This document shows positions 10,345-17,282 of a stretch of DNA of 25,467 nucleotides, piece after piece. The translations under genes were made by a program, and so were the position numbers. The stretch is from an uncultured Bacilli bacterium. GTDB taxonomy: Bacteria > Bacillota_I > Bacilli_A > RF39 > UBA660. Position 1 is the first letter of the stretch, and each line of letters opens with the position of its first letter. The DNA lies in the NCBI GenBank assembly GCA_947630095.1, contig CANRGI010000001.1, positions 1 to 25,467 on the forward strand, in the 5' to 3' direction. Under the pieces are notes generated by a model, which did not search any database, was not told where the DNA came from, and saw only the letters and a program-made list of their open reading frames with translations.

Positions 10345-11424
10345 CTAACTATTACTTCCAAGTTTTACTTTAATTTCTTTACTCTTACCATCTCTAATTA
10401 TAGTAAGTGTTACTTTGTCGTCTGGATTATAACTATAAAGTCTATATCTAAATTCTGCTATGTCTGTTACTTCGTCGTCTCCTACTCTAACTATGACATC
10501 TCCACTAGTTAAACCAGCATCACTTGCAGGACTATTATTTTCTACATCAACTATAACTACACCTGCTAAAATATCACTATCAAGTCTAATACCTGCAGAA
10601 AGTAATTGCATTCTACTACTTGCATTAACCATACTAACACCTATATAAGGTCTACTAATAGAGCCATAATTCCTTAGGTCATTAGCATAATTTATTGCGT
10701 CTTCTATTGGAATAGAAAAACCTATGCTTTCTACTGTATCTTCAACTATCTTTAATGAATTTATACCTATTACTTCTCCATTTACATTACATAAAGGTCC
10801 ACCACTGTTACCAGGACTAATTGCCGCGTCTGTTTGCATTACGTTCATTATCCAGTCACTTTGTCCACCACTTAAACTAACAGAAACTAATCTATCTTTT
10901 CCACTTAGTATTCCTCTTGTGACTGTTCCTTTAAAATCTATTCCCATAGGACTTCCTATAGTAAATACAGTATCTCCTTTTCTAACATCTTCACTTTTAC
11001 CTAAAGTGGCAACATTTAATATAGTATCTTTATCTACCTTTAATACTGCTATATCTGCATATTCGTCACTACCTACAATAGACGCTGTAGTAACACTATC
11101 GTCACTATAAGTTATCTTTATATCTCCAGCATCTTCTATAACGTGATGGTTTGTCATAATATAGGCATATTTATCGTCTTTATCATATACAAAACCAGTA
11201 CCAGTACCAAGTAATGTATCTCTTTCATATACTTGTACAACAACAGTCGCGCTTTCTATTTTTTCTACCGCTTCTGCTATTCCTGTATCTGTTATACTAA
11301 CATTTTTTTCTGTTATAGTTTTAACTACTTCATTAGGATACTTATATATAACTGCGCACATAATAAGTACACCTAAAATAAACGCTATTAAAACTCCTAA
11401 ACAATATATAAATTTCTTTCTCAC
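10345..11424 (-). CDS. htrA: HtrA/DegP-family serine protease with N-terminal TM and PDZ domain
   Basis: TNHHV, DIAVLK, QTDAAISPGNSGGPL and a C-terminal PDZ. The start is moved to GTG 11424 behind RBS AGGAGA. Confidence 0.92.
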   Translation of the reverse strand: MRKKFIYCLGVLIAFILGVLIMCAVIYKYPNEVVKTITEKNVSITDTGIAEAVEKIESATVVVQVYERDTLLGTGTGFVYDKDDKYAYIMTNHHVIEDAGDIKITYSDDSVTTASIVGSDEYADIAVLKVDKDTILNVATLGKSEDVRKGDTVFTIGSPMGIDFKGTVTRGILSGKDRLVSVSLSGGQSDWIMNVMQTDAAISPGNSGGPLCNVNGEVIGINSLKIVEDTVESIGFSIPIEDAINYANDLRNYGSISRPYIGVSMVNASSRMQLLSAGIRLDSDILAGVVIVDVENNSPASDAGLTSGDVIVRVGDDEVTDIAEFRYRLYSYNPDDKVTLTIIRDGKSKEIKVKLGSNS

Positions 11425-11437
11425 TTTTATCCATCTC

Positions 11438-12370
11438 CTATTCAATGTACATTATATCTCTATAATTAGGTGGGAAACCCATTTTATCTAAAATATCGTC
11501 TATCTTTATTGTATGAAGTAACCCAGTAAGTTTATCTATTTCATAATTTATTTCATTCATCATCATTTTAAAGTCTACTGGTCTAAGTAATCTTTTAAGT
11601 ATTATAATAAGGGCAAAGATGTCATTTTTACCATAAACATATTCTTCATTAGTTTTATCAATATTTAGTAAATTATGATATTTAGTATCAGGAATAACTC
11701 TCTGTGTAAAATTATCAAATAATATGTTTTCGTGAGCACATAAATTTCTATAATTAGCAAGTATAGGTAAATACACTATTAAATCTGGAACATCTATTTT
11801 ATAAATATTAGCAATTTCTATTTTATCTTGCATTTTAAGTACACTATATATCTCACTCATAATACCAAAACTAATAACTTTAACACCTATCCAAAGAGGT
11901 ATATAACCATAATTTTCTAAATAGTGATTAGTTGCCATATGGCTTTTACCATTTATTCGCAGTTGACGTTTAATCTTTCTTATTAAATCATTAATCTGCC
12001 TCATTTTACTTTTATCATTATCAAAGTTTTTAACATTTAAGTAATCTCTTTCTTTATAACCATATTCCCTACTCAAAACATAACTTAAAATAGATTTATA
12101 GTTATTTTCTACTATTAGAATATTCTTAAAGATTATATTCCTAAACATTCTATCAAATACAAATAGACTATATATTTCTTCAAATGTAGTTCCTTCTTTA
12201 AACTTTCTCGATGTATCTTTTCTTAAAAATACGTGTCTGTAACCCATTAAAAAGAAATAATTTTCTCTTAAAAGGACTTCTTTAGTATATTCAATATCAC
12301 TTATTTTTAGTCCTTTATCAATTAATATGTTGATTTGTTCATCTAAATTTTTAAATACTTTATTTGCCAA
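11438..12370 (-). CDS. Abi family protein (Abi_2, AbiD/AbiF-like, HEPN)
   Basis: N-terminal LLRENYFFLMGY..F..GTTFEEIYSL..FDR and HEPN RxxxxH motif RNLCAH. TTG start with RBS AGGTGA. Confidence 0.82.
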   Translation of the reverse strand: MANKVFKNLDEQINILIDKGLKISDIEYTKEVLLRENYFFLMGYRHVFLRKDTSRKFKEGTTFEEIYSLFVFDRMFRNIIFKNILIVENNYKSILSYVLSREYGYKERDYLNVKNFDNDKSKMRQINDLIRKIKRQLRINGKSHMATNHYLENYGYIPLWIGVKVISFGIMSEIYSVLKMQDKIEIANIYKIDVPDLIVYLPILANYRNLCAHENILFDNFTQRVIPDTKYHNLLNIDKTNEEYVYGKNDIFALIIILKRLLRPVDFKMMMNEINYEIDKLTGLLHTIKIDDILDKMGFPPNYRDIMYIE

Positions 12371-12545: not shown

Positions 12546-12950
12546 ATGATGGACGACGTTACATACACAGAAACTTTTACTAGAATAGTTGATAAAGATA
12601 GTGAAGCAATTGCGCATAAATTATATGCGATAGAAAGTGAATATAATAAACAGGCTGGTTGGAGTATAGATAATTTAGATATAACTGAGGTAAGTTATGA
12701 TAGTGTAAAAATCTCTGCTACATTATCAAAACATAGTAATAAAGAAGAACTACCTTATCAAGAATTATTTATAAAAACTATAAACTCGAATTACACTAGT
12801 TTAAATAATCAACTTAGTATGATAAATGAACAATACCCTAGTAGTTATGGTTATGAAGTAGGAGAAACTATTTCAATTAAACTTAATGATGGAAATATGA
12901 TAATAATTACTCCAATAACTAAATATCAAGATAGAATAAGAAGAAGATAA
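12546..12950 (+). CDS. Hypothetical protein (134 aa)
   Basis: Strong RBS AGGAGG and a downstream terminator; no motif recognised. Confidence 0.7.
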   Translation: MMDDVTYTETFTRIVDKDSEAIAHKLYAIESEYNKQAGWSIDNLDITEVSYDSVKISATLSKHSNKEELPYQELFIKTINSNYTSLNNQLSMINEQYPSSYGYEVGETISIKLNDGNMIIITPITKYQDRIRRR

Positions 12951-13032: not shown

Positions 13033-14835
13033 TTATTTTACTAATATTTTATTAGTGTTTCTTTTTACTAAATATAAACCAATACCAATAACTAATAAAG
13101 ATGTTAATCCAATAACTATATAAGTAGAAATTGCATCTCCAGTTTTAGGGTTATTAATTAAAGTATCTACATACGCAATAACGTATTCACTAAATTTATC
13201 ACTCTTAAACTTTAATGCTTTTCCATCACTTGTTAAAGTTGCATCTAATTTTTCAACTTTTCCTTCGTGATTTCTTAAAATATAGTATTTTCTTTCATAA
13301 CCTTTTGCTACACTAGGTAACTCTGGTAAGTAAGCAAGTATTTCTATTTCACTTGTTAAGTCTGCTATTTCATAGTCTTTACCTAATACATTAAGATTAA
13401 TTTTTATACTTAATGCTTTACTTATAGTACCTTCTTTAAAGGCATCAGTGAATAATTTTTTAGTTTTATTATCTAATTCTATTTCTTCACTACTTAAAGT
13501 TACAGTTGCAGGGTTTTCTCCAATTATTTCTTGATATTTTTCTCCTGCTAAAGTATTATTTACTACACTTGAGAAATCATTACCAGAAGTAATTGTGTTA
13601 TCTTCTATTTTGTATTCATATATGATAGGAGAGTCTATATAACCTATTCCGATTACTCCAGCGTTAGTTACTTCAAATTCGATAGCAGTTCCATCAAAAT
13701 TTAATGTTGCAGGAACTTTTTTAACTTCTCCATCAACAACACTAACTACATAATAATCTCTAGCGTGTCCTTCTTCTAGTCCTTCAAGTAAACCATTAAC
13801 TTTTAATATTACTTTTTGTGGAGTTAATAATTTATCTAATTTAGTACTATAATATCCAGTTCCATCACTTATTGATAAACGAACTTGAAAATACTTTTTG
13901 AAATTAAATCCTTCTTCTGTTTTACTATCTACTAAAGTTTTATCTTCTCCATAAAAATCATTAGCACCTATAGTACTTATGTAATAATAATAACCAGTTG
14001 CAGGTAATTCTTCTTTAATTGCTTCATTTGCGTTTATTGCTGCTTCCATAGCGCTTCCAAAAGCAGTTGCATCTGATGGTTTAATTGCATTTGTATAGTC
14101 ATAACCATTAAATTTAACTAATACAGCATCGTCACCATAATTATTTGTATAAGTTACTGTTACAGTACCATCTTCTTTTACTTTATATACACCAATTATT
14201 TCTCCTTCACCAGAAACCATACCAGGTGTACAATCATTTTTTCCTGCTGAACAATTGTAATTTATTACATAATCTCCAGGGTTAAAATAATCTTTTACAT
14301 CTAAAGTTATTGTATTTTCTCCAGGTGGCTTAAGACCATTTGCTAGTAAATGAACTCTAAAACCTTTAGCATTTTCAAAAACTTCTTTTTGTGGAGTTGA
14401 TAATTCATTTGTATAAACAGTTAAATTATTTTCATTTTTAAAACCATCTACAACATTTTCACTAGTTGGCATAATACTATCCCAGTTATATAAGAATTTA
14501 CCACTTTCATTGTAAGCATCAAATGATAATATTACTTTATTACTAACTGCTAATTTTAGTGTTTCATTAGTAATAAATACATTAGTTTTTTCACAACCAT
14601 CTTTATATACTAACTTAATAGTAACTTTATCGTTAAAATCAAGTGTATCTTTTTTATTAGCAGTTATAATATTATCAATATTTAAAGTATAGTCGTCACA
14701 AGTACCTATATTTACTGTATTAGTATTTGCAATTATTGAGACTCCATTATCCCTCCCTTCTTCTAAAGCATTAAGATTATTTAGTGTTACTAATGTTAAG
14801 ACTGCACTAAATAAAATAAGTAACAATTTTTTCAT
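13033..14835 (-). CDS. Secreted sortase-anchored surface protein (LPXTG-like NPKTG)
   Basis: Signal peptide MKKLLLILFSAVLTLVTLNNLNA; C-terminal NPKTGD + TM + KRNTNK positive tail; RBS AAAGGAG. Confidence 0.88.
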   Translation of the reverse strand: MKKLLLILFSAVLTLVTLNNLNALEEGRDNGVSIIANTNTVNIGTCDDYTLNIDNIITANKKDTLDFNDKVTIKLVYKDGCEKTNVFITNETLKLAVSNKVILSFDAYNESGKFLYNWDSIMPTSENVVDGFKNENNLTVYTNELSTPQKEVFENAKGFRVHLLANGLKPPGENTITLDVKDYFNPGDYVINYNCSAGKNDCTPGMVSGEGEIIGVYKVKEDGTVTVTYTNNYGDDAVLVKFNGYDYTNAIKPSDATAFGSAMEAAINANEAIKEELPATGYYYYISTIGANDFYGEDKTLVDSKTEEGFNFKKYFQVRLSISDGTGYYSTKLDKLLTPQKVILKVNGLLEGLEEGHARDYYVVSVVDGEVKKVPATLNFDGTAIEFEVTNAGVIGIGYIDSPIIYEYKIEDNTITSGNDFSSVVNNTLAGEKYQEIIGENPATVTLSSEEIELDNKTKKLFTDAFKEGTISKALSIKINLNVLGKDYEIADLTSEIEILAYLPELPSVAKGYERKYYILRNHEGKVEKLDATLTSDGKALKFKSDKFSEYVIAYVDTLINNPKTGDAISTYIVIGLTSLLVIGIGLYLVKRNTNKILVK

Positions 14836-14867
14836 TTTCTTTTCTCCTTTCTATTTTAAGACAAAGC

Positions 14868-14895
14868 AAAAAGACACATAATAAAATTATGTGCC
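14868..14895 (-). terminator. Intrinsic terminator/attenuator in the 5' leader of the surface protein gene
   Basis: Minus strand GGCACATAA-tttta-TTATGTGTC-TTTTT, about 33 nt upstream of the ATG. Confidence 0.7.
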
Positions 14896-14979
14896 ACGAT
14901 AAAAATGAGAACGATTATGTTTAGTAACCCCCCCCAAGCAAAATAATGTTTGTGTAGGTTCTTTCATATCAATTTTCAT
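14887..14979 (-). CDS. 30-aa leader peptide containing a G8 homopolymer, not in the ORF track
   Basis: RBS GAAGGAG then MKIDMKEPTQTLFCLGGVTKHNRSHFYRGT*. The stop lies in the 5' arm of the terminator. Confidence 0.7.
   Translation of the reverse strand: MKIDMKEPTQTLFCLGGVTKHNRSHFYRGT
14928..14935 (-). repeat. G8 homopolymeric tract (C8 on plus)
   Basis: Directly read; I saw no other G/C run this long in this AT-rich window. Confidence 0.95.
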
Positions 14980-15012
14980 TTCTTTGCTCCTTCAAAAAAT
15001 TATTACATCTAT

Positions 15013-15041
15013 ATTATATTCTTATAGATTTTTAGTGTCAA
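15013..15041 (-). promoter_or_regulatory. Consensus SigA promoter for leader + surface protein
   Basis: TTGACA (15041-15036), 17 nt, TATAAT (15018-15013). Confidence 0.85.
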
Positions 15042-15052
15042 GAAAAAATAAC

Positions 15053-15087
15053 AAAAAAACCTTATAAACTCTAGGTTTAAAAGGTTT
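15053..15087 (-). terminator. rplM-rpsI terminator
   Basis: Minus strand AAACCTTTTAAAC-ctaga-GTTTATAAGGTTT-TTTT. Confidence 0.8.
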
Positions 15088-16045: not shown

Positions 16046-16097
16046 ATAAAACTTGAAGTCGGTCATAAAATTTATTACAAAACGTAAAATTAGATAG

Positions 16098-16126
16098 TTG
16101 ACAACAATTCTGAACTATTATAAAAT
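16098..16126 (+). promoter_or_regulatory. SigA promoter
   Basis: TTGACA (16098-16103), 17 nt, TAAAAT (16121-16126). Confidence 0.75.
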
Positions 16127-16166
16127 GATAATAGAGTAAAAAAGAATAGAAGTTGGAGGAATAAAA

Positions 16167-17282
16167 ATGAAAAAGAAACCAAAAAGCAATAAAGGAATAA
16201 TGGTAGTGTTAGTACTCCTTATTATTGCTTGTGTAGCCTGTGGTACTATAGGATATTTAGAAAGTACTAAACCAAAAGATACTAATGAAGGAGAAAATAA
16301 AGAAACAGACCCTAAGGACTTTAAAGTAACGTATAGATATTATTTAGATGGAGAAGAAATAGACGATATTGTTGAAAAAGAAACTTTAACATTAAATAAT
16401 AGTGAAGAATTTGAAGGAGATACTGAAGAAATATACGTATATAACTTTGATAGATATAGTTGCACTAATAACGTTACTGGTACTTGGAATGAAGAAGACT
16501 GGGAATTTACACCAGAATTAACAGCAAATTCTACTTGTAGATTATACTTTATTAAATCAGAACATACTGTTACATTTAAAGCAAATAATGGTATTCTTCC
16601 TAGTGGTCAAGTAGAAGAAAAGTTAGAAACTATAATAAATAAAGATAAAACAATAAATGTTAAACCAGCAGAAGGTTATAAATTTGAAAGTATAAGTTGT
16701 ACTAATAATGATATTAAAACTGAATATAATGAAGAAACTAATGATGTTACTGTATCAAATGTTACTAAAGATGGCGCTATATGTACAGTAGAATTTGGTT
16801 TAAAAGATTATAAAGTTGAAGTTACAGCACAATTTGGAAGTGTTGTTGAACCTAAAGACCAAACAGTTAAATATGGCGCTAATGTAGAATTTGAAGTAAG
16901 TCCATCAGAAAATTATGCTTTTGAAACAGTTACTTGTACTAATGACCAACACGGAACTTATGTAAATGGTAGACTTACAATATCAGGTGTAAGTAATGAT
17001 ACTGTTTGTACTGTAATATTTAGACCAGTAAAATACACTGTAACACTTAATGTAACAGGTGGTAAAATTAGTTCTGGATATTCTAGTCCACAAAGTGTAT
17101 CTGAAGGACAAAAAGCAACATTTGTAGTTGAACCTGACGAAGGATATAGTATGACAGGAGTTGTTCCAGAGTGTGGAGAAAATGTTAAGACAGAATTTCA
17201 AAGTGGTATATTAAATGTATATGATGTTACAAATAATATAACTTGTAATTTAAATCTTAAAAAGACAGAAACAACTGAATAA
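16167..17282 (+). CDS. Membrane-anchored extracellular protein with three ~70-aa beta-rich repeats (divergent InlB-B-repeat-like)
   Basis: N-terminal TM; repeats of the form (Y/H)xV...G......V..G....F.V.P.EGY.F..V.C.N...(V/I)..VT....C.V.F. Confidence 0.75.
   Translation: MKKKPKSNKGIMVVLVLLIIACVACGTIGYLESTKPKDTNEGENKETDPKDFKVTYRYYLDGEEIDDIVEKETLTLNNSEEFEGDTEEIYVYNFDRYSCTNNVTGTWNEEDWEFTPELTANSTCRLYFIKSEHTVTFKANNGILPSGQVEEKLETIINKDKTINVKPAEGYKFESISCTNNDIKTEYNEETNDVTVSNVTKDGAICTVEFGLKDYKVEVTAQFGSVVEPKDQTVKYGANVEFEVSPSENYAFETVTCTNDQHGTYVNGRLTISGVSNDTVCTVIFRPVKYTVTLNVTGGKISSGYSSPQSVSEGQKATFVVEPDEGYSMTGVVPECGENVKTEFQSGILNVYDVTNNITCNLNLKKTETTE

Follow-up and report, generated by a model that had tools for sequence, protein, structure and literature searches.

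A G8 tract in a short leader ORF before a surface protein gene of uncultured gut Bacilli: a candidate phase-variable leader-peptide attenuator

The closest described system is that of the pil1 and pil3 pilus operons of Streptococcus gallolyticus, in which GCAGA repeats in a leader peptide gene alter the length of the peptide (Danne et al., 2014, PLoS Pathog, PMC3894217). If the stop codon lies far ahead of a premature terminator (by 39 bp in UCN34 and by 28 nt or more in other low-expressing isolates), pilus expression is low, while a stop within or beyond the terminator leads to high expression, and the OFF state is leaky (PMC3894217). The mechanism was proven with mutants of the ATG, the stop and the terminator, and it also works in Lactococcus (PMC3894217). 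Our literature search returned no other example besides Danne et al. (2014).

Here we analyze a locus of comparable layout in the genome of an uncultured Bacilli bacterium. The window, by which we mean the whole stretch of 25,467 nucleotides that was analyzed, is contig C1 of a genome (G000) of 1.16 Mb in 157 contigs, with 26% GC and 86% completeness. A preliminary description of the locus had given no named system of this design, which has in fact already been proven for pil1/pil3 (PMC3894217); what we describe is not a new principle, and is rather the homopolymer counterpart of a mechanism already proven, found at high copy number in a lineage that has not been studied. Like pil1/pil3, the locus combines a promoter, a leader ORF with a simple sequence repeat (SSR), a premature intrinsic terminator and a sortase-dependent surface gene, and two of its three frames are predicted to be ON. 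Unlike pil1/pil3, which carry 13–22 GCAGA units, it has the homopolymer G8; the cassette is present in at least nine copies per genome before unrelated gene families, and promoter-spacer switches occur in addition. A further difference is that the ON-frame stop overlaps the gene's ATG in several paralogues, which would add translational coupling, and the host, a reduced-genome gut Bacilli, is uncultured and known here from sequence alone. Since the leader has no GCAGA repeat and is unrelated in sequence to that of pil1, the two systems are analogous, not homologous.

Three broader classes of regulation share part of this layout. Classical poly-G/C contingency loci, such as those of Campylobacter jejuni, Neisseria and Haemophilus, have their tracts in promoter spacers or within genes. 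As in those organisms, G/C runs of at least 8 are strongly over-represented in a low-GC genome and tied to surface proteins, and both classical types recur, the promoter-spacer type in this genome and the 5'-coding type in the prepilin genes of relatives. The run at the present locus lies 78 nt downstream of the -10 element and 93 nt upstream of the regulated gene's ATG, that is, neither between -35 and -10 nor in the regulated ORF, and, unlike the classical tracts, it would act through a separate leader ORF and a terminator. In ribosome-mediated transcription attenuation, as in the trp operon and the antibiotic-sensing leaders of Firmicutes, the position of the ribosome on a leader ORF decides whether a terminator forms, as it may here; unlike those leaders, this one has no regulatory codons and no alternative antiterminator hairpin, and its input would be a mutation in frame length instead of stalling on a signal. 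Finally, in the cwpV-type switch of Clostridioides difficile, recombinase-driven DNA inversion flips a leader that forms a terminator in one orientation. Both switches would vary a cell-wall protein at a step after the promoter, through premature termination in the leader, but by repeat slippage and a leader peptide in our case and by DNA inversion without a leader peptide in cwpV.

The preliminary description had proposed a promoter, a ribosome-binding site (RBS), a leader ORF, the G8 tract, a hairpin with U5 and the RBS and ATG of the downstream gene, and all of these are present on the minus strand exactly where it had placed them, correct to the base (Table 1). The unit thus reads, in order, consensus promoter, RBS, a leader ORF of 30 codons with G8 at codons 15–18, hairpin and T5, RBS and ATG. 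The promoter is the sole perfect match among 29 promoter-like sites found in a 4-kb scan; it is kept in two other strains, and equivalents precede all paralogous leaders. The repeat lies within an ORF that has its own RBS and start and is predicted to be translated, with the promoter upstream and the gene downstream. The terminator hairpin, GGCACATAAT-TTT-ATTATGTGTC (-8.9 kcal/mol), is positioned between the leader ORF and the structural gene, in a region in which we counted 3 terminator-like sites against 0.8 expected. A search of Rfam gave no family matching 14836-15045 at E ≤ 1.

Table 1. Features of the leader locus, with positions in the window; the terminators are predicted.
Feature	Positions	Strand	Remark
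Terminator-like hairpin + T7 ending the rplM-rpsI (L13-S9) operon	15053..15087	minus	Read by eye; S9 and L13 from Pfam
Consensus sigma-70 type promoter, TTGACA-17-TATAAT	15013..15041	minus	12/12 matches
Leader RBS, GAAGGAG	14987..14993	minus	7 nt 5' of leader ATG 14979
Leader ORF as assembled (G8), 30 aa, MKIDMKEPTQTLFCLGGVTKHNRSHFYRGT	14887..14979	minus	Stop inside hairpin 5' arm
G8 homopolymer (C8 on plus strand)	14928..14935	minus	Proposed slippage site; the leader's most variable spot between strains
TAA in use at G9	14921..14923	minus	DRR848945 allele is in that frame; predicted OFF
Intrinsic terminator, 10-bp stem + 3-nt loop, then T5	14868..14895	minus	Hairpin 14895-14873, T5 14872-14868
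TAA in use at G7 or G10	14856..14858	minus	40/41-aa peptide through whole hairpin
RBS of regulated gene, AAAGGAG	14844..14850	minus	Gene ATG at 14835
Regulated gene, 600-aa secreted protein	13033..14835	minus	Signal peptide + NPKTG cell-wall sorting signal

The genes upstream are rplM-rpsI, as identified with Pfam, and because this operon has its own hairpin and T-run before the promoter, the leader is its own transcription unit. Three other candidate roles for parts of the leader were considered and rejected. The leader hairpin is ruled out as the rpsI terminator, since rpsI terminates upstream of the consensus promoter. An internal promoter firing at the G run (TTGATA-18-CATTAT, 14972-14943) is weak and is not conserved in the paralogues. 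The 40-aa peptide of the G7 frame is not a good candidate for a real membrane protein, as the ON-frame peptides differ between subgroups of leaders.

That the regulated protein is sortase-anchored, as had been claimed, is well borne out: the signal peptide is matched at the C-terminus by NPKTG, a TM span and a basic tail (KRNTNK), the protein passes NCBIfam TIGR01167 (20.6 bits vs a cut-off of 15.9), its match to Pfam PF00746 falls below the cut-off of that model, and the genome encodes five sortases. Beyond the signal peptide and the sorting signal, no known domain was found in it. Its C-terminal 200 aa are 40–44% identical to two proteins of the same genome that stand behind promoter-spacer G8 switches. 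No orthologue of this protein (P0001) was found in the 10 other species of the genus, and exact-protein look-ups for six neighboring or regulated proteins gave no match.

Changing the length of the tract in silico and translating the products gave three frame states, in agreement with the hand translations of the preliminary description for G8, G9 and G7/G10. At G8 the 30-aa peptide ends at TAA 14889-14887, within the 5' arm of the hairpin. At G9 a 19-aa peptide ending in LGGGY stops 4 nt after the tract and 25 nt before the hairpin (previously given as about 26). At G7 or G10 the stop falls 5 nt before the gene's RBS and 20 nt before its ATG. The number of repeats thus determines whether the stop lies well ahead of the hairpin, inside it or past it. 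By the rule established in S. gallolyticus, this locus should be ON at G8 and at G7/G10 and OFF at G9; the preliminary description correctly placed the G8 stop inside the 5' arm and left its expression state open, and the same rule would make that state ON.

The best explanation, which we consider probable, is a phase-variable leader-peptide attenuator. A strong constitutive promoter would yield a short leader mRNA, whose small ORF contains G8, and the number of Gs would set the reading frame 3' of the tract. At G9, the ribosome would stop ahead of the hairpin, the terminator would form, and little transcript would reach the surface-protein gene (OFF or low). At G8, with the stop in the 5' arm, or at G7/G10, with translation passing through the hairpin, the ribosome would block hairpin formation, so that transcription could continue and the RBS would be opened (ON). 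Switching between these states would be heritable and reversible, through slipped-strand mispairing when the G tract is replicated. We infer leader translation, termination at the hairpin and a high slippage rate at this tract, and the ON/OFF assignment is carried over from the S. gallolyticus experiments. It should be noted that in some Firmicutes RNA polymerase outruns the ribosomes, which would weaken translation-dependent antitermination. Nevertheless, an SSR in a translated leader that sets ribosome position relative to an intrinsic terminator is the best-supported explanation of what we observed, namely the anatomy of the locus, its recurrence, its frame logic and the differences in tract length among relatives.

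The recurrence is extensive. G8/C8 tracts occur 14 times in the 1.16-Mb genome against 0.14 expected from composition, a 100-fold enrichment, and the genome's G runs comprise one G7, these 14 G8 and nothing longer. All 14 are in regulatory positions, and nearly all precede surface proteins. At nine of them (on contigs C1, C6, C128, C10, C19, C20, C71, C109 and C140), a promoter, an RBS, a short ORF with G8, a hairpin with T5-6 and a second RBS stand before a secreted or anchored protein. These nine loci form three subgroups that have only core motifs in common (ACA..TTTG..G8T, a T-rich stretch and the hairpin core), and further leader copies, truncated, lie at contig ends. An RBS and ATG are found 28–46 nt 5' of the tract in 13 of 14 leader-type loci. 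The other five tracts sit in promoter spacers of 18 nt (TTGACA-N7-G8-TAG-TATTAT), on C99 (L010), C106 (L011, two sites), C118 (L012) and C70 (L009), four of them before NPQTG-anchored proteins and one before an FkbH_N-domain (FkbH-like) protein. The genome's only G7 (C137:1693-1699) occupies the RBS position of a 295-aa ORF, 5 nt ahead of its start, and belongs to neither class of switch.

The search for other leaders with an RBS, short ORF, poly-G tract and hairpin that the preliminary description had advised was thus fruitful within this genome, and it extends to other genera. With G8, the layout occurs in a species of the same genus and at five loci of another genus; with G9, it occurs in six or more additional genera. 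Of 121 sampled genomes of the family, 48 carry exact G8 and 46 exact G9 runs, often in many copies: 25 G8 and 37 G9 runs in G021, 33 and 1 in G096, 24 and 2 in G014, and 2 and 14 in G093. Thirty G9 loci, drawn from thirty genera, show three uses of the run, in promoter spacers (17–18 in total length), in the 5' coding part of prepilin-like genes (..GFTLIE..), and in leader ORFs followed by terminators. In five loci from other genera (L132, L143, L156, L146 and L151) G9 lies in the first codons of prepilin-like genes (..KGFTLIELLAV..), a classical case of translational phase variation affecting type IV pilin-like proteins. The 62 runs of G021 (L161-L200; 1.3 Mb) are mostly near-identical promoter cassettes (TTGAAA-N10-Gn-TGCAAT) directly 3' of the preceding gene's terminator, a very high density of putative contingency loci.

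One gene links the two designs directly. The FkbH-like gene has a promoter-spacer G8 in G000 (C70, L009:368-2158) and a leader-ORF G8 with a terminator in the sister species G003 (C3, L123:536 onward), the two orthologues being identical at 438 of 593 residues (74%). The two switch designs are therefore interchangeable, and the occurrence of the same gene family, or of orthologues, behind either a spacer or a leader G8 argues that what matters about the G run is its length rather than any function as a binding site.

Evidence for a role of the reading frame comes from a comparison of twelve independent leader groups, from three species of the G8 set and six G9 genera. One frame reaches into or through the hairpin in all twelve, for which the individual mononucleotide-shuffle nulls, 0.32–0.78, multiply to about 0.002. 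The other two frames stop at most 22 nt after the run in ten of the twelve (chance of about 0.28 each, binomial about 1e-4); the exceptions are the present locus and G003b, each with two hairpin-reaching frames and one short frame. This non-random frame pattern, together with the recurrence of the layout at nine loci and in other genera, strongly backs the mechanistic reading. Recurrence and frame logic thus speak for the SSR-attenuator mechanism put forward in the preliminary description, while the design is not new and no length variation of this particular tract was seen among the assemblies compared.

The length that opens the long frame is G7/G10 at five loci, G9 at three and G8 at one (C20), and such differences among paralogues are what loci that switch independently should show; given that every run is 8 long, the loci predicted to be ON are C20 and the present one alone. 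The long-frame stop overlaps the gene's ATG as ATGA in C6, C128, C10 and C19, and other long frames end close to the gene start (at a distance of up to 30 nt in five of seven G000 loci for which a start was called). These overlaps and nearby stops point to added translational coupling, a possibility raised earlier for this locus; it finds its support in those four paralogues, while here the stop nearest the gene lies, as given above, some way before the ATG.

The hairpin is conserved in its pairing. Equivalent hairpins are present in all paralogues and relatives, and their sequences are entirely different in other genera. Pairing is kept through double changes, G-C to A-T at this locus and C-G to T-A in G026, by which the core CATAG/CTATG becomes CATAA/TTATG here and TATAG/CTATA in G026. 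We read these compensatory changes directly, since MAFFT had set the 5' arm of this locus two columns out of register.

Variation of the tract itself is less straightforward. G8 is found at this locus in the window, in a rabbit-gut run (X2) and in a third study (X7), the last two compared as Logan contigs at a depth of about 2, which give alleles and not population frequencies; the X7 allele has a G>A change 4 nt upstream of the tract. The searches of sequencing runs for the locus returned no RNA run that holds it. In two other samples the leader is about 99% identical and the run is interrupted. One interrupted allele, GGGAGGGGG, is 9 nt long, which puts the leader in the short, predicted OFF frame, and it is probably locked; the other, TGGGAGAG, is 8 nt long and keeps the frame of G8. 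The changes at this spot between strains are thus not of pure length, and no pure length variant of the tract was seen among the three G8 assemblies and two interrupted alleles compared. In the OFF-frame strain (DRR848945) the regulated gene is intact and 98% identical; it differs by 13 nonsynonymous and 9 synonymous substitutions and has NPQTG in place of NPKTG. A strain fixed in the predicted OFF frame with an intact gene implies that OFF is leaky or that the model is incomplete.

Phase variation by slippage, as the preliminary description proposed, is for this tract an extrapolation from relatives, in which alone real differences in run length were seen. In G021 there is a mix of G8 and G9 among near-identical cassettes. 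In addition, an orthologous pair of leaders from two human-gut metagenomes (L218 and L278) differs as G10 vs G9, with downstream flanks identical at 244 of 250 positions; its leader ORF begins MK[LV]FKNVNVCKDNVK and has no clear terminator 3' of it. This pair came from a metagenome scan with G7+TTACTAA, in which most of the matches listed were unrelated and only this pair was useful.

The frame differences that we do see between paralogues and between alleles are due to single bases beside the run (an extra T or A) and not to its length. One case is the C19 orthologue, in which flanks 100% identical (L336:959-1264, ENA ERZ27249118, vs L093:1400-1720) enclose a mosaic leader, again with G8. The leader of ERZ27249118 is similar to that of C109, with an additional A immediately 3' of G8T. 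Gene conversion among the leader cassettes is suggested by this, as are frame changes that arise from bases adjacent to the G run and not from its length. Two further contigs should be mentioned. L160:880-993 (DRR848987) agrees with the window over the leader and the gene's first 12 nt, beyond which the two differ completely; it could be a recombinant or a chimeric contig, or the leader could there precede another gene. Contig L338 ends before the leader.

These observations bear on what is, among the rivals to the attenuator, the one that survives best, although we regard it as unlikely. In this view a leaky attenuator or uORF cassette, constitutive in its action, has been passed on together with a family of paralogous genes; its G run is a relic or hotspot that mutates slowly, and the states change over evolutionary time, through point indels and gene conversion, rather than within populations. 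Strain alleles that differ by an interruption of the run, by an adjacent added base or by mosaic segments matching another paralogue are what such a cassette would produce, and it would account for the lack of a within-locus length variant among the assemblies compared. The 100-fold enrichment of uninterrupted G8/G9 across many genera, taken with the stop-rich short frames directly after the run, however, argues for selection on a mutable run, and the mix of run lengths in G021 also speaks against this rival.

The constancy of the tract brings in a second rival. All 14 tracts of this genome, the C19 orthologue found elsewhere and the tracts of G003 and G026 are exactly 8 long, a uniformity that is odd for freely slipping runs; the genome also encodes MutS and MutL, a further point against the attenuator switch. 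The uniform length could reflect a sharply peaked slippage equilibrium with minority variants, or slippage that is not heritable. The latter would keep the same architecture and replace mutation with slippage of RNA polymerase, or +1/-1 slippage of the ribosome, on G8, so that a fixed fraction of transcripts or ribosomes enters the hairpin-reaching frame and expression is set low or high with the DNA unchanged. Such slippage would explain why the 14 loci, and those of other samples and species, have runs of exactly 8 while the paralogues need different shifts, and G GGG GGG is formally a slippery heptamer. We nonetheless find it doubtful, given the real differences in DNA length between near-identical cassettes in relatives and the five G8 tracts in promoter spacers, where DNA length alone can matter. 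The known sites of transcriptional slippage in bacteria, moreover, are A/T runs. A combined form of these ideas, to which we likewise give little credence, is that G8 is held either by polymerase or ribosome slippage, giving a programmed, non-heritable split, or by a sharply peaked equilibrium in which few cells leave G8, with gene conversion of cassettes in addition. Either way, if true, it would amount to a genome-wide, two-tier surface-variation system (promoter-spacer and leader-attenuator) that is unusually dense for a genome of about 1.2 Mb.

Quite improbable, in our view, is that the G run acts as RNA, with no need for leader translation, and modulates termination or stability by pairing either with a conserved U/C-rich stretch about 20–35 nt downstream or with a C/U-rich small RNA. 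There is a precedent for the small RNA in RepG and tlpB of H. pylori, where a C/U-rich small RNA pairs with a G run. A pyrimidine-rich segment (TTCTCATTTTT, TCTTTTATCTTTTT, TCTCTCATAGTTTTTT) does follow the run in all copies, and in the G026 leader the run and CTCTC form the stem of a hairpin with T6 after it. The whole-leader fold, however, only marginally beats shuffles (z = -1.98), the conserved RBS and ATG, the frame pattern and the ATGA overlaps would be left unexplained, and the same run works in promoter spacers. Very improbable, lastly, is an assembly or sequencing artefact in which the homopolymer is miscalled and the small ORF is a chance frame: the genome is a MAG in 157 contigs, and a bias of platform or polishing could make run lengths uniform within each genome, but independent assemblies from other studies give G8 with identical flanks and the layout is conserved across genera.

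Should the attenuator reading hold, a mechanism that has so far been proven for just two pilus operons of a single Streptococcus would be a general, modular device, used dozens of times per genome by abundant, uncultured gut Bacilli with reduced genomes to vary surface proteins, pilin-like proteins and probably glycan-modifying enzymes. It would then bear on immune and phage evasion and on strain-level heterogeneity in metagenomes, and also on annotation, as leaders and frame-shifted genes are easily miscalled. The device would be a compact and portable stochastic switch, with states predictable from sequence.

Several features of the surrounding window may be noted. Upstream of rplM, at 16064-16135 on the minus strand, there is a weak Rfam match to RT-6 RNA (23.8 bits, gathering score 46.7, E = 0.02), which is probably due to chance. 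A divergent neighbor at 16098-17282 on the plus strand has a TTGACA-17-TAAAAT promoter and encodes a 371-aa protein with an InlB B-repeat (Flg_new_2), likely another surface protein, without a G run. A 134-aa ORF at 12546-12950 on the plus strand has no family. Just downstream of the region of the regulated gene, at 10345-12370 on the minus strand, the genes for an HtrA-like trypsin/PDZ protease (366 aa) and an Abi_2 (abortive-infection-like) protein (310 aa) share a few bases.
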